From assembly GCA_963664405.1 (NCBI GenBank), contig OY761158.1, positions 3,840,001 to 3,904,000 of the forward strand: DNA of 64,000 bases, given 5' to 3'. The translations under genes and the position numbers were made by a program. The notes beneath the pieces are model-generated. The model was not told the DNA's origin. It was given only the letters and a program-made list of their open reading frames with translations, and searched no databases. Source of the DNA: Thermoanaerobaculia bacterium. GTDB taxonomy: Bacteria; Acidobacteriota; Thermoanaerobaculia; Multivoradales; Multivoraceae. This document shows, in pieces, positions 30,272-60,931 of this stretch. The stretch's first letter is position 1. Every line of letters starts with the position of its first letter.

Positions 30272-31237
30272 ATGGGACGTGATCTCAGGCACATTCCGCA
30301 GGATCTTCTCGCTTCTTCGGGCCCTCTCGGCCCCTTGATCGAAGTGACGACACGAACCATGCAGGGGCGTCTTCTGCTTCGACCCTCGCCTGCGCTCAGA
30401 GAGATCATCATTGGCATCCTCGCCCGTTCTGCCCGGATGTATAAGGTGTCGGTGGTTGGCTTCGTTTATCTGTCAAACCACTTTCATCTCCTGCTCCGAA
30501 CCCGCGATGTGAGGGAGCTGTCGGCTTTCATGTGTTTTGTCAACGGGAATGTGGCCCGGGAGGCGGCGCGGTTGCATGGCTGGCCTGAGAAGTTTTGGTC
30601 ACGACGCTTCACTGCGATCTTGATCAGTAACGAGGAGGACAAACAACTTGAGAAGCTCCGTTATCTCTTCGCACAGGGCTCCAAGGAGGGTCTGGTTCAG
30701 CACCCCGAGGAATGGCCTGGCGCGAGCTCCGTCCAGGCGCAGATGAGAGGGGAGGGTCTTTCGGGAGTCTGGTTCGATAGGACCGCCGAGGGTGACGCTC
30801 GACGATGCGGACGGAAGCCGAGCAAGTACGAGTTTGCGTCACGGGAGACGTTGAAGCTCTCCCCCCCGCCCGTTTGGGACGGCATTGAGCCGAAGGAGGC
30901 CTGTCGAAGGGTTTGCGAGATGGTCTGCGAGGTCGTAGCCGAGACTAGCGCCGCTCTTCGAGAGCGGGGTGATAGACCTCTGGGGGTTCAAAGGATTCTG
31001 CGCCAGCATCCCCACTCGAGACCGATAGCTCTGAAGCGATCACCCGCGCCCCGTTTCCATGCCTCTAGCTGGGACGTCCGCAAGCGGCTAGAGGAAGCCT
31101 ACAAAGCCTTCCTTGTCGCCTACCGGCAGGCAGCGGCTCAGCTTCGGAGTGGCGAGCTGGGGGTCGAGTTTCCAGCGCAGTGTTTCCCTCCAGCCCTTCC
31201 TTCCGTCAGGGGTCCGACCCTCATCTCAGCTTCCTAG
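30272..31237 (+). CDS. HUH Y1 transposase, REP-associated tyrosine transposase (RAYT)-like
   Basis: VTTRT, LSNHFHLL (HUH), FWSRRF and LRYLFAQGSKEGLV...EEWPGASS (catalytic Tyr region). No tnpB partner and no long TIRs. Confidence 0.85.
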   Translation: MGRDLRHIPQDLLASSGPLGPLIEVTTRTMQGRLLLRPSPALREIIIGILARSARMYKVSVVGFVYLSNHFHLLLRTRDVRELSAFMCFVNGNVAREAARLHGWPEKFWSRRFTAILISNEEDKQLEKLRYLFAQGSKEGLVQHPEEWPGASSVQAQMRGEGLSGVWFDRTAEGDARRCGRKPSKYEFASRETLKLSPPPVWDGIEPKEACRRVCEMVCEVVAETSAALRERGDRPLGVQRILRQHPHSRPIALKRSPAPRFHASSWDVRKRLEEAYKAFLVAYRQAAAQLRSGELGVEFPAQCFPPALPSVRGPTLISAS

Positions 31238-39221: not shown

Positions 39222-39617
39222 ATGCGACGCTTGCTGCGGATCATTCTGCTGATCGGAATGCTCGGGACCCTGGCTGAGCTCGTTCTGCTGGAGCATACCG
39301 AGGGCTACTGGCAGCGCCTTCCGCTGGTCCTGTTGATCTTGGGCCAGGCCGCGATCGTTCTCGAGGCGATGAGTGCCCGCCGTTGGCCTCGGCGGGCTCT
39401 GCAGGGTCTGATGGCGGCTTTTCTGGTCGGCGGAACGATCGGCCTCTACCAGCACTACCAGGTGAATCTGGAGTTCGAGCGCGAGATGTATTCCTCTCGG
39501 GCCGGGCTCGAGCTGGTCTGGGAGTCCCTCAAAGGCGCGACGCCCGCCCTCGCACCGGCTGCAATGATCTACCTGGGCCTACTCGGACTGCTCTACTGCC
39601 GAGCGCAGGCAGACTAG
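39222..39617 (+). CDS. Hypothetical 4-TM membrane protein
   Basis: 131 aa with four hydrophobic helices and ELVLLEH and P.LAP motifs; 8 nt downstream of the HhH gene. Confidence 0.75.
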   Translation: MRRLLRIILLIGMLGTLAELVLLEHTEGYWQRLPLVLLILGQAAIVLEAMSARRWPRRALQGLMAAFLVGGTIGLYQHYQVNLEFEREMYSSRAGLELVWESLKGATPALAPAAMIYLGLLGLLYCRAQAD

Positions 39618-39704
39618 CCCCAGAAAACGCGCCTTCGGCCCGTTTTCCGGCCCATCCCCGCCTGAGAACTACTCGCCTGTCCGAATTCTCGGACACACTC
39701 CTAG
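39614..39704. repeat. Repeat family 1, short divergent unit A0
   Basis: CTAG-CCCCAGAAAACG..CGTTTTCC ... TGTCCGA-ATTC-TCGGACA-CACTC-CTAG. It has the same two end types as unit A1 and shares the CTAG at 39701-39704. Confidence 0.7.
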
Positions 39705-39846
39705 CCTCCAGAAATGATTGCTATCATTTCCTCCGCTGGGCGCGCCCCGGCTAGTTGCCCTTTGGCGCCGAGGACGGCGCACTCAGGCGTTGCTTCCTAT
39801 TCGCTCCGGGAAACGGCGCTGGCCGAATACTCGGACACGCTCCTAG
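39701..39846. repeat. Repeat family 1, intact 146-bp unit A1 (empty IS1111 target)
   Basis: Aligns end to end with the reverse complement of 59108-59119 + 60596-60716, apart from scattered substitutions and a 14-nt indel. Confidence 0.92.
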
Positions 39847-58473: not shown

Positions 58474-59097
58474 ATGAAGAAAACAGTGAGTAACGTAGCC
58501 TTCAGCCCCACTGTCAGGGCCACACAGGAGCGCCTCGGATCAAGGCCCACCTACGCCCGCATGGAGCAGTTGGCCGGCTGGCAGTCGGCCATCAATCCGG
58601 ACTTGGAGCGCTTCATCGCTGAGCGGGACTCGTTCTATCTAGGCACTGTGAGTGCCGACGGCCAGCCCTATGTGCAACACAGGGGCGGCCCGAAGGGCCT
58701 CCTCAAGGTGATCGACGAGCACACTCTGGCGTTCGCCGACTTCGGCGGAAACCGGCAGTACATCTCGATGGGAAACCTGGAGGACAACCCCAAGGCTTTC
58801 ATCTTTCTGATGGACTACCCGAACCGCCGCCGGATCAAGATCTGGGGCCGGGCCGAGGTGGTCGAGGACGACCAGGCTCTGCTGCGGCAGCTCGCCGATC
58901 CTGACTACAAGGCCACTCCGGAGAGGGTCTTCCGGTTTCGCGTCGAGGCCTGGGATGTGAACTGCAGGCAGCACATCACCCGTAGATTCACAGAGGAAGA
59001 TATCGGCCCTGAAATGAAGGAGTTACGAAATCGCGTCGCGCAGTTGGAAGGGGAGCTTCACGAGCTCAGAAAGAGCGCTCTCACTTCCGGTCCCTGA
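58474..59097 (+). CDS. Pyridoxamine 5'-phosphate oxidase-family FMN-binding protein
   Basis: FIAERDSFYLGTV..DGQPYVQHRGGPKG, ADFGGNRQYISMGNL, RRIKIWG and WDVNCRQHI motifs. Confidence 0.92.
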   Translation: MKKTVSNVAFSPTVRATQERLGSRPTYARMEQLAGWQSAINPDLERFIAERDSFYLGTVSADGQPYVQHRGGPKGLLKVIDEHTLAFADFGGNRQYISMGNLEDNPKAFIFLMDYPNRRRIKIWGRAEVVEDDQALLRQLADPDYKATPERVFRFRVEAWDVNCRQHITRRFTEEDIGPEMKELRNRVAQLEGELHELRKSALTSGP

Positions 59098-59219
59098 TTT
59101 TCTTGTGCTAGGAGCGTGTATCTGGACTCCAATGTCAACAGGGGTGGGTCGGTCTTCTTGTTTTTGATAGAGGTTTCCTTGGTGTGTAATCACAGGCAGT
59201 ATGGAGGTCGATGGTGAGT

Positions 59220-59400
59220 CAAGACAGCAGACGTATCTCCGGCCTGTAGTGGGCGATTATTAGCGCCGGGCCATGATGAAGAAATGCGCGTGAGGGAGCC
59301 GAATCGTCCGAAAGGGCCTCGAAGGCCAACGCTCCTATCGGCTTTTCCCCCCACGCCAGTCTGACTGGAAACCATCAGAATTCTCTACTCGCGCTGTCGG
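59220..59400 (-). ncRNA. Putative bridge RNA / seekRNA of the IS1111 element (ends approximate)
   Basis: Stem GCGUGGGGGG..AGCCGA / UCGGCU.CCCUCACGC encloses an internal loop carrying UAGGAGCGU and UCGGAC (target halves). A second loop carries UUCAUCAU and AGAUA (element ends). Confidence 0.85.
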
Positions 59401-59466
59401 AGTGTTTGTGAGTGTTCAATTTGAAGTCTTCGGGTGCGTTGGGGTCCAGAGATCGAGGCCAAGGGC

Positions 59467-60507
59467 TCAGGCCGTGACTTGCCGTGGAGGCTGCAGCTGG
59501 AAGGAGGTCTCGTGGGTCCAGACCGCCCAGACAACGCGTGCGAGCTTGTTGGCGAGGGCAACGGCGGCCCGGTTCCGTCCCCGCGAGCTCTCGACTCTGA
59601 GGGCCCACTGTTCGAGCCTACCGGCGGGTCCCTTTCTCCTCGCCCAGCTGAGCACCGACCTGGCGCCATGAATGAGGAGAGTTCGTAAGTACGCGTCCCC
59701 GCGTTTGCTGATCCTGCCGAGCCACCGCCGAGCGCCACTGGAGTGTTCCCTGGGAGTCAGTCCGAGATAGCTGGCGAGATGCCGGCCGCTTTTGAAGCGG
59801 CGAATGTCTCCGATCCAAGCGACCATGGCTGTGGCCGTGAGTACGCCTACGCCCTTGATCGTCAGGAGTCGCTTCACGGCCTCGTCCTGGCGCGCGAGGG
59901 CTTGGATCTGTGCCTCGAGCTCTTGGATCTTCGTGGTCAGCTCGTCGATGTGGTCACAGATGCTTTCGAAAAAGGGTCGCAAGACGAGCGGGATCTCGGT
60001 ATCCGGATCCGCGAGCCAGACGCGGACGCGCGGCAGGACCTGGGCGCGTCCCTGGGGCAGAAAGAGCCCGAGCTCTCGTAGGTGCCCGCGCAGAGCATTG
60101 ATGTGGGCGGTGCGATCGTCCATGAACGACGAACGGATGCGATGGAGCGTGGTCATCGTCTGCTGCTCGAGCGATTTGACCGGTACGGGTAGGATGTCCT
60201 CGTTTCGATGCGCCTCGAGCATGCCCGTGGTATCCGTTCGATCCGATTTATTGCGCAACACATAGCGCCGGGTGAAATGCGGTGGCAGCAGGATCACCTC
60301 GTGGCCGAGACTCTGAATACGCCGGCCCCAGTAGTGCGCCGAACCGCAGGCTTCCATGAGGACGGTCGCGGGCTTGATCTGCGCGAAGAACCTGAGGAAT
60401 TTCGCCCTTCGCACGCGCTGCCTCTCGGCGACCTTACCCGGCTCGTAAGACACCGCGATCTCGAAGACATCCTTGGCGATATCGACTGCGATACGTGTAC
60501 TCTTCAT
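59467..60507 (-). CDS. IS110-family DEDD transposase/recombinase (346 aa)
   Basis: AVDIAK, MEACG, KSDRTD (DEDD RuvC-like) and GLTPREHSSG (catalytic Ser), ISKRGD, ALANKLAR. Start is ATG 60507 after a GGGAG Shine-Dalgarno. Confidence 0.97.
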   Translation of the reverse strand: MKSTRIAVDIAKDVFEIAVSYEPGKVAERQRVRRAKFLRFFAQIKPATVLMEACGSAHYWGRRIQSLGHEVILLPPHFTRRYVLRNKSDRTDTTGMLEAHRNEDILPVPVKSLEQQTMTTLHRIRSSFMDDRTAHINALRGHLRELGLFLPQGRAQVLPRVRVWLADPDTEIPLVLRPFFESICDHIDELTTKIQELEAQIQALARQDEAVKRLLTIKGVGVLTATAMVAWIGDIRRFKSGRHLASYLGLTPREHSSGARRWLGRISKRGDAYLRTLLIHGARSVLSWARRKGPAGRLEQWALRVESSRGRNRAAVALANKLARVVWAVWTHETSFQLQPPRQVTA

Positions 60508-60931
60508 CGTGGACTCCCTTTCTACGATCAACGTTTGCGACTTAGGTGACCCCTGGCACATAGATGCCGAAGTCACCGGGGAGTCCATTTCATCATCCGA
60601 GTATTCGTCCTGAGCCGTTTCCGTGAGCGAATAGGAAGCAACGCCCAAGTGCGCCGTCCTCGGCGCCAAGAGACAACTAGGCGGAGGAAATGATAGCCAT
60701 CATTTCTGGAGCCTAGGTTTTTTCGGTGCCAGCCCGTTCTCCATCCCGCTTCGGGTCCTGCCGCCGCGCTGTTCGCTGCGGCGTTCATTGCAGAGAGCCG
60801 GCGCCTAGAGCCTCGGAGTGCGCTAGCAGACGAGAGCTTCCTGAAGCACCCGTTCGTTGAATTGGAGCCAGCTCAGCTCCCGGTTCGAGTAGTAGGTAGA
60901 ATGGCCGAGATTTGAGCATCGAGGTGCGAGA

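Follow-up and report, generated by a model that had tools for sequence, protein, structure and literature searches.

IS1111-group insertion sequences (IS) are described as having a non-coding region downstream of the transposase gene (tnp), in which a complement of the target's top strand lies 5' of a match to the bottom strand, and as inserting without target duplication (Siddiquee 2024, PMC11187229). Their RNAs are reported there as long forms of 145–170 nt and short forms of 70–100 nt that carry the target matches, and many IS1111 bridge RNAs are described with their donor-binding bases in a multiloop (Durrant 2024, PMC11208160). Here, we describe an element of this group in a 64,000-nucleotide stretch (the window) of the genome of a Thermoanaerobaculia bacterium (GenBank assembly GCA_963664405.1, contig OY761158.1, positions 3,840,001 to 3,904,000), a genome that consists of one contig of 6.78 Mb. 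From the sequence, we are highly confident that this is a complete and probably still mobile IS whose guide RNA is encoded downstream of tnp; the anatomy of the element, its strict site specificity, the conserved fold of the RNA, and the co-variation of guides with flanks support this directly. The mechanism, the position of the RNA, the order of the guides, and targeting of the repetitive extragenic palindromic (REP) type are already published (Siddiquee 2024; Durrant 2024), and the element itself is a new example.

ISPa11 and ISEc11, two IS1111 elements for which a seekRNA was shown experimentally, are described with an RNA downstream of tnp, the same guide order, no duplication, and a junction promoter, all of which we also find or predict here, and ISPa11 targets a host REP, a likeness to the repeat targeting reported below (PMC11187229). 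As described, they are set apart by target matches that overlap, whereas those here abut, and by a left extension of 7 nt compared with 8–9 nt here, where the subterminal inverted repeat is 8 bp. IS621 (PMC11208160; PDB 8WT6) is likewise described with a bispecific target and donor RNA, a DEDD and serine recombinase, and a repeat target. However, its RNA lies upstream in the left end rather than downstream of tnp, its donor guides sit in a simple internal loop whereas the donor bases here flank a hairpin in a multi-branch junction, and its core dinucleotide, CT, occurs in donor and target alike and is recognised by each guide, where we find one shared base and abutting guides. ISPpu9 of Pseudomonas putida, with its RNA Ssr9, can be likened by description as an IS110-family element that lies in REP sequences with a small RNA gene downstream, and the same study reports extra solo copies of that RNA (PMC12288879).

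The closest named relative of the recombinase is an ISPa25-family transposase from a plasmid collection (49.7% amino acid identity over 97% of the protein). ISPa25 is described as a diverged relative of the IS1111-family ISKpn4 with the same target (Siddiquee 2024, PMC11187229). On plasmid NZ_CP137509.1 (locus L080), this IS1111-family element resembles ours in its ends (TGATGGAA-TGGACTCC on the left, GGAGTCCATATA on the right) and in the scaffold of its 3' non-coding RNA (GCCGAU..., ...CGAUAGGC, GGCCCGG...). It differs in its host, a Pseudomonas plasmid, in its target, an integron attC-type site compared with a chromosomal repeat here, and in its guides (UAACAAUGCC; CUUGAAC). The protein in the window, of 346 amino acids, has a DEDD (RuvC-like) N-terminal domain (Pfam DEDD_Tnp_IS110, PF01548, E 5.2e-11) and a C-terminal Transposase_20 domain (PF02371, E 2.2e-27), which is the IS1111/IS110 architecture (about 330–350 amino acids), and scores 316.8 bits against a cut-off of 140 with the NCBIfam model NF033542, 'IS110 family RNA-guided transposase'. 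The solved structures of IS621 (E 1.5e-10) and ISCro4 (E 1.3e-9) both align with the C-terminal half of the protein, in which GLTPREHSSG is aligned to GLTPRRYESG of IS621 and fits GL-P----S(T)G, given as the C-terminal motif of the IS1111 group (Siddiquee 2024, PMC11187229). An earlier reading made from the sequence alone (the original prediction) had proposed an IS1111-type recombinase paired with its RNA, and these matches agree with it.

Guide RNA and target repeat

Non-coding DNA takes up 347 nt downstream of tnp (59120–59466) compared with 89 nt upstream (60508–60596), and the RNA core lies in the longer part (Table 1). In minimum free energy (MFE) folds, the core is a multi-branch junction that contains a small hairpin, the target-binding arm (59356–59288), and a donor hairpin (59272–59241). 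Helix P1, which closes it, has a compensatory change in the alignment of homologues (GACUGC/GCAGUC to GACAGC/GCUGUC), and the published sizes of IS1111 RNAs fit the 176-nt core and the 69-nt target arm. All four guide segments lie on the minus strand where the original prediction had placed them (TAGGAGCGT, 59337–59329; TCGGAC, 59311–59306; TTCATCAT, 59280–59273; AGATA, 59238–59234), and the long stem that it had drawn (59288–59302 with 59338–59356) pairs in the MFE folds. Two of its details need correcting. A second loop was said to match the element ends; the matches stand, but the loop is in fact the multi-branch junction closed by P1, and the structured core is longer than had been drawn. 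The left guide was said to stop two bases short of the crossover, whereas there is no unread gap: UCGGAC covers TCGGA^C (the caret marks the insertion point) and UAGGAGCGU the next nine bases, ACGCTCCTA, so that the guides abut and read 15 contiguous target bases. It was right in observing only one shared base, unlike the 2-nt core of IS621, and this fits the reported IS1111 traits of no target duplication and multiloop donor bases. In the window alone, a 9-mer common to the 347-nt non-coding region and the 17-nt target was reached by chance in 12 of 2000 shuffles. Among homologues, the (G/A)AGAUACG of the right-end donor guide is almost invariant.

The element occurs three times in the genome, with the same ends each time, and all three copies lie between CTAGGAGCGTGT and CCGAG(T/A)ATTCG. 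Two full copies, a truncated one, and a solo left-end fragment represent a sister IS (72% nucleotide and 73% amino acid identity), which shares the ends and the target and whose guides are nearly identical. Across the element and its sister, the occupied junctions (6/6 right and 6/6 left) are in the same site and orientation, and no copy was found in unrelated sequence, the outcome that the original prediction had named as speaking against it. The sister IS was located at G000:C1:5487767-5489297 and 6025684-6028381, in one case as a series of truncated copy, type-A repeat unit, and full copy, and its solo left-end fragment at C1:5984569-5984921.

Empty sites are free of target duplication. The restored target that had been proposed, TAGGAGCGTGTCCGAG, stands uninterrupted within the window at 39830–39845, and the 15-mer covered by the guides has 64 exact unoccupied sites in the genome (~0.013 expected; 0 for the reversed control). 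The proposed repeat family proved to be two: the target is a 23-nt head (CTAGGAGCGTGTCCGAG[A/T]ATTCG) common to type A, a strongly palindromic unit of about 87 nt (z = -4.3, both strands), and type B, about 128 nt, both ending in CTAG. Allowing up to 4 mismatches, there are 90 heads, among which 16 adjacent pairs occur, and units are often in tandem with CTAG shared between them. Within the window, repeat units occupy 39614–39846 on the minus strand.

The repeat head has no copy in four related genomes, which belong to the same family or order. At 99.3–99.9% identity, the sister IS also occurs in a genome from a different family of the phylum (G164; L038 / L077, G164:C5:1576868-1581444). That locus carries about 220 bp of type-A plus type-B repeats, and two of the three heads in the genome lie beside the IS, which points to horizontal transfer of the IS along with neighbouring repeats or to a chimeric assembly. 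We considered and rejected two readings of the repeats. As a REP/RAYT system, they would be expected near a Y1_Tnp domain, and 0 of 13 Y1_Tnp matches lie within 6 kb of any of the 90 heads; the idea that type B contains a relic of the IS circle junction gave a best ungapped match of 13–14/24, which 1679 of 5000 shuffles equalled. The thirteen Y1_Tnp (IS200/RAYT-like) matches comprise one in the window (30401–30649, plus strand) and 12 elsewhere, and 12 of the 13 are above the Pfam cut-off.

Table 1. Positions in the window of the element, its predicted RNA parts, and the interrupted repeat
Feature	Position	Strand	Basis
Whole IS element, IS1111 type, 1477 bp	59120–60596	minus	identical ends in 3 copies, uninterrupted target at empty sites
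Transposase / bridge recombinase coding sequence, 346 amino acids + stop	59467–60507	minus	Pfam, NCBIfam
Predicted bridge/seek RNA core, 176 nt	59223–59398	minus	folds; kept in 16 homologous sequences, 16 doubly changed pairs
Helix P1, closes core: GACAGC with GCUGUC	59398–59393 with 59228–59223	minus	folds
RNA 5' segment UGAUGG, mimics left-end positions 1–6, can pair with donor guide (helix P0)	59372–59377	minus	RNAalifold
Target-binding arm: basal stem, internal loop, apical hairpin GGCCU-UCG-AGGCC	59288–59356	minus	folds, alignment helices 4–6
Target guide, loop 5' side UAGGAGCGU, pairs with transposase-sense strand ACGCTCCTA of right flank	59329–59337	minus	9/9 match
Target guide, loop 3' side UCGGAC, same sense as TCGGA^C across insertion point	59306–59311	minus	6/6 match
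Left-end donor guide UUCAUCAU, pairs with ATGATGAA; doubles as 3' strand of helix P0	59273–59280	minus	sequence, RNAalifold
Right-end donor guide AGAUAC, same sense as AGATA + first target base C	59233–59238	minus	sequence
Left subterminal inverted repeat TGGACTCC	60580–60587	minus	sequence; kept as TGGACTCC(TCCC) in homologues
Left terminal extension, 8–9 nt, outward of left subterminal repeat	60588–60596	minus	sequence
Right subterminal inverted repeat GGAGTCCA	59123–59130	minus	sequence; GGAGTCCAGATA kept in homologues
Right terminal extension GAT(A), 3–4 nt, outward of right subterminal repeat	59122–59119/20	minus	sequence
-35 hexamer TTGACA, right end	59133–59138	minus	sequence; TTGACA or TTGCGG at same place in homologues
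-10-like TGAAAT, left end, TG one base before	60587–60592	minus	sequence
Interrupted repeat head, left part CTAGGAGCGTGT	59108–59119	plus	copy and family listings
Rest of interrupted type-B repeat unit (CCGAGTATTCG ... GAGCCTAG)	60597–60716	plus	>40 genome copies; family listing

Conserved fold and changing guides among homologues

When 401 genomes of the phylum were searched at the protein level, 32 of them, the present genome (G000) included, had relatives. Genome contigs were also scanned, and 6 of 71 candidate stretches proved to be relatives; the best of those with a name are metagenome-assembled genomes labelled Candidatus Marinacidobacterales and Phycisphaeraceae. The loci analysed have 48–73% amino acid identity; we left out L056-L065 (32–40%), the fragmentary L034-L036, L055, and L066, and the duplicate L032. 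Alignment A1 holds 17 of 21 oriented sequences (OWN_B, L043, L044, and L053 were dropped for having an RNA identical to a kept row), and alignment A2, without L049 and its degenerate 3' half, holds 16.

The 3' regions of the homologues align across the entire RNA. When the structure defined from the window is laid over the 16 sequences, 80.1% of 633 cells pair, compared with 33–45% when the partners are slid by 1–3 columns. In addition, 16 of 43 pairs are doubly changed, so that the fold foreseen for this region is conserved with compensatory changes, and the observed fold score was reached in 0 of 500 shuffles. Because the sequences are related, this shuffle count makes the evidence look stronger than it is, and the slid controls give a fairer measure.

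The original prediction had also proposed testing whether loop sequences co-vary with insertion sites, and they do. For the right flank and the 5'-side loop, one locus was taken for each distinct guide (10), with L033, L049, L050, and L051 having no right flank and L040 and L046 sharing the target of L039; none of 200,000 permutations attained the cognate sum of 65 (permutation mean 36.8). For the left flank and the 3'-side loop, with 14 groups (L047 and L054 having no left end), the sum of 60 (mean 43.6) was reached in 16 of 200,000. For example, the 5'-side loop CAACUGCGU of L031 matches its right flank ACGCAGTTG in a run of 9/9, UAACAACCGU of L039 and L046 matches ACGGTTGTTA in 10/10, and UAGCAGCC of L042 and L044 matches GGCTGCTA in 8/8.

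For the homologue represented by L042-L044 (57% identical), the joined flanks and the guides predict the empty site CACCACGGNCTGCTAG. With at most one mismatch, it occurs 68 times in G309, 59 times in G385, and once in G393, compared with 0–1 for the reversed control. The predicted site is thus repeated in its hosts, and this homologue therefore also targets a host repeat, a different one. The site has the form CACCACGG[A/G]CTGCTAG, and the genomes with 68 and 59 copies are of one genus.

Several observations weigh against an RNA-guided element of the described kind. Searches for empty sites of L041 (in G356) and L045 (in G313) found nothing. In L039, L040, and L046, the left guide agrees with the element's own flank over 3 nt only, and the guide of L054 fits the flank of L045 (9-nt run) and its own flank by only 4, a mismatch that may come from recombination between elements or from an off-target insertion. 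The thermodynamic signal is weak (z = -0.54 for the whole non-coding region, -1.63 for the core), and an Rfam 15 scan of 58900–60900 at E up to 10 gave six weak, irrelevant matches and no bridge-RNA family. The 8-bp subterminal repeat is shorter than the usual 11–13 bp, with an IS1111 range of 7–17 bp, and the left extension is 8–9 nt compared with 7 reported. As for L054 (G264:C7), it is truncated, its target guide is UAACUUCGC, and its own flank resembles the L039/L040 target.

Element ends, crossover base, and helix P0

By direct reading of the sequence, the left flank ends in CTAGGAGCGTGT (59108–59119) and the element begins with ATCTGGACTCC at 59120, while its terminus ...TTTCATCAT at 60596 is followed by CCGAGTATTCG. 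The only base common to both junctions is T on the plus strand, and the boundary is ambiguous by this one nucleotide, 59119–60595 being equally possible. The extensions are 9 bp left and 3 bp right when the left end takes the shared base, and 8 left and 4 right otherwise. Their sum of 12 is set by the empty sites, and the reported IS1111 values are 7 (or 6) left and 3 right, with a sum of 10. The subterminal inverted repeats TGGACTCC/GGAGTCCA are 8 bp here and 12–14 bp in homologues. Upstream lies a gene on the plus strand (58474–59097) with a weak NCBIfam match, below the cut-off, to a PPOX-type FMN-dependent flavoprotein. The interrupted repeat starts 11 nt past the stop codon of this gene, and the insertion is therefore intergenic.

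Read on the transposase strand, the shared base in the window is an A found both in the right end CCAGATA and in the target TCGGA^C. Homologues keep the right-end A, and the base before their left end is A, G, or C. In 11 of 13 groups (L048 and L051 disagree, L052 is ambiguous), this base is matched by the penultimate one of the 3'-side guide, and in about half of the homologue groups, the crossover base specified by the target guide differs from the terminal A of the element. Most simply, the crossover base would be part of the target and recognised by the guide, and the single shared base in the window would then reflect either a weak preference or a coincidence in this target. Compared with the circle junction, the right junction formed by insertion is the better match to the right-end guide AGAUAC(G), and by analogy this behaviour may resemble the handshake-guide logic described for IS621 (PMC13626964).

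Another feature of the RNA concerns its 5' segment. Helix P0 pairs 59372–59377 with 59274–59279 on the minus strand, and 91.7% of its cells pair, with 3 doubly changed pairs. By direct count over the 16 sequences, the RNA segment and the donor guide pair in 88/96 cells compared with 76/90 for the guide and the left end of the DNA, and in L031, L041, L051, and L038 the RNA–RNA pairing beats the pairing of guide and left end. The helix is also found in ISPa25 (UCAUGG/CCAUGA). It is conceivable, though we put it forward only tentatively, that this pairing, kept by compensation even at the cost of complementarity to the DNA end, is a self-masking or a conformational switch that would control donor engagement; separately, a shared core may be dispensable in this IS1111 clade. 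Helix P0 may be new, or it may already lie within published consensus structures.

In these families, joined ends are described as creating a promoter (Siddiquee 2024, PMC11187229). In the circle predicted here, TTGACA would lie 17 nt upstream of TGAAAT, and a promoter scan of the linear element gave 0 sites.

Proposed mechanism, alternatives, and significance

We infer that the RNA is produced and bound by the protein and that a circle forms, and the exact cleavage positions are likewise inferred. In this mechanism, the RNA that directly follows the gene of the DEDD/serine recombinase would guide that enzyme. On the right of the insertion point, the transposase-sense strand ACGCTCCTA would pair with the 5' side of the target loop, and the opposite strand of TCGGA^C would pair with its 3' side, the two sides together reading 15 contiguous bases of the repeat head, while the bases that flank the second hairpin in the multi-branch junction would pair with both element ends. 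The RNA would bring the circularised element and the target together, and recombination would take place without target duplication. Circularisation would also join the TTGACA of the right end to the TG-N-TGAAAT of the left end at a predicted junction ...CCAGATA^TGATGAAA... (here the caret marks the joint), giving a junction promoter for the recombinase and the RNA.

The element is likely active, because two copies are 100% identical and the open reading frame is intact. The alternative that survives best, although we find it unlikely, is that the copies are old, the RNA-guided machinery is dead, and the guide matches are relics. Some copies have indeed decayed, as the truncated sister copy and the solo left-end fragment show, the subterminal repeat is short, and four public runs with the element, available at the contig level only, gave no joint across the element or between its ends, and no RNA or circle evidence. 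However, 1477/1477 positions agree between the window copy and its counterpart at C1:3695944, although the two lie at unrelated loci, and the third copy, at C1:3365443, differs at five positions, none within the RNA core. The intact reading frame has its KxDxxD and GLTP....SG motifs aligned, and the guides match the target perfectly with 64 empty sites left. In the public-run data, the IS contig had about 3x the depth of its unique flanks and ended 12 and 11 nt beyond the element, and in one run (X7) no reads covered the unique flanks of the window copy, from which we draw no conclusion.

A second possibility, and a highly improbable one, is that the protein picks its site by the hairpin of the repeat, as in REP-like recognition of structure, with RNA complementarity incidental. 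The insertion point does lie in the 5' arm of the first type-A hairpin, and the strong folding of type A would suit such recognition. Yet type-B units, which lack that hairpin, are equally used and hold 2 of the 3 copies, the guide loops of homologues change with their flanks while the protein fold and the RNA scaffold stay, and in IS1111 members the RNA is described as required and reprogrammable by experiment (Siddiquee 2024, PMC11187229). Least credible of all is an origin of the copies by segmental duplication or homologous recombination between repeats rather than by transposition. The abundance of the flanking repeats and their frequent tandem arrangement (90 heads with 16 adjacent pairs) would favour it, but the similarity of the three loci ends 12 nt outside one element end and, at the other, stops after about 11 nt (copy 2, type A) or where the type-B unit that is shared comes to its end (copy 1), the flanks are unrelated beyond the repeat, the junctions are precise to the base, and the empty sites are exact.

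The known mechanism is unchanged by this element, which offers a natural example of RNA-guided recombination outside the well-studied Proteobacteria and also aids the annotation of a repeat family that had gone unrecognised. The element and its guide RNA can be set beside dozens of unoccupied targets, a diverged sister that shares the programming, and homologues programmed differently. Such material is useful for the guide rules of IS1111 elements (register, guide length, and crossover base), which are less worked out than those of IS621.

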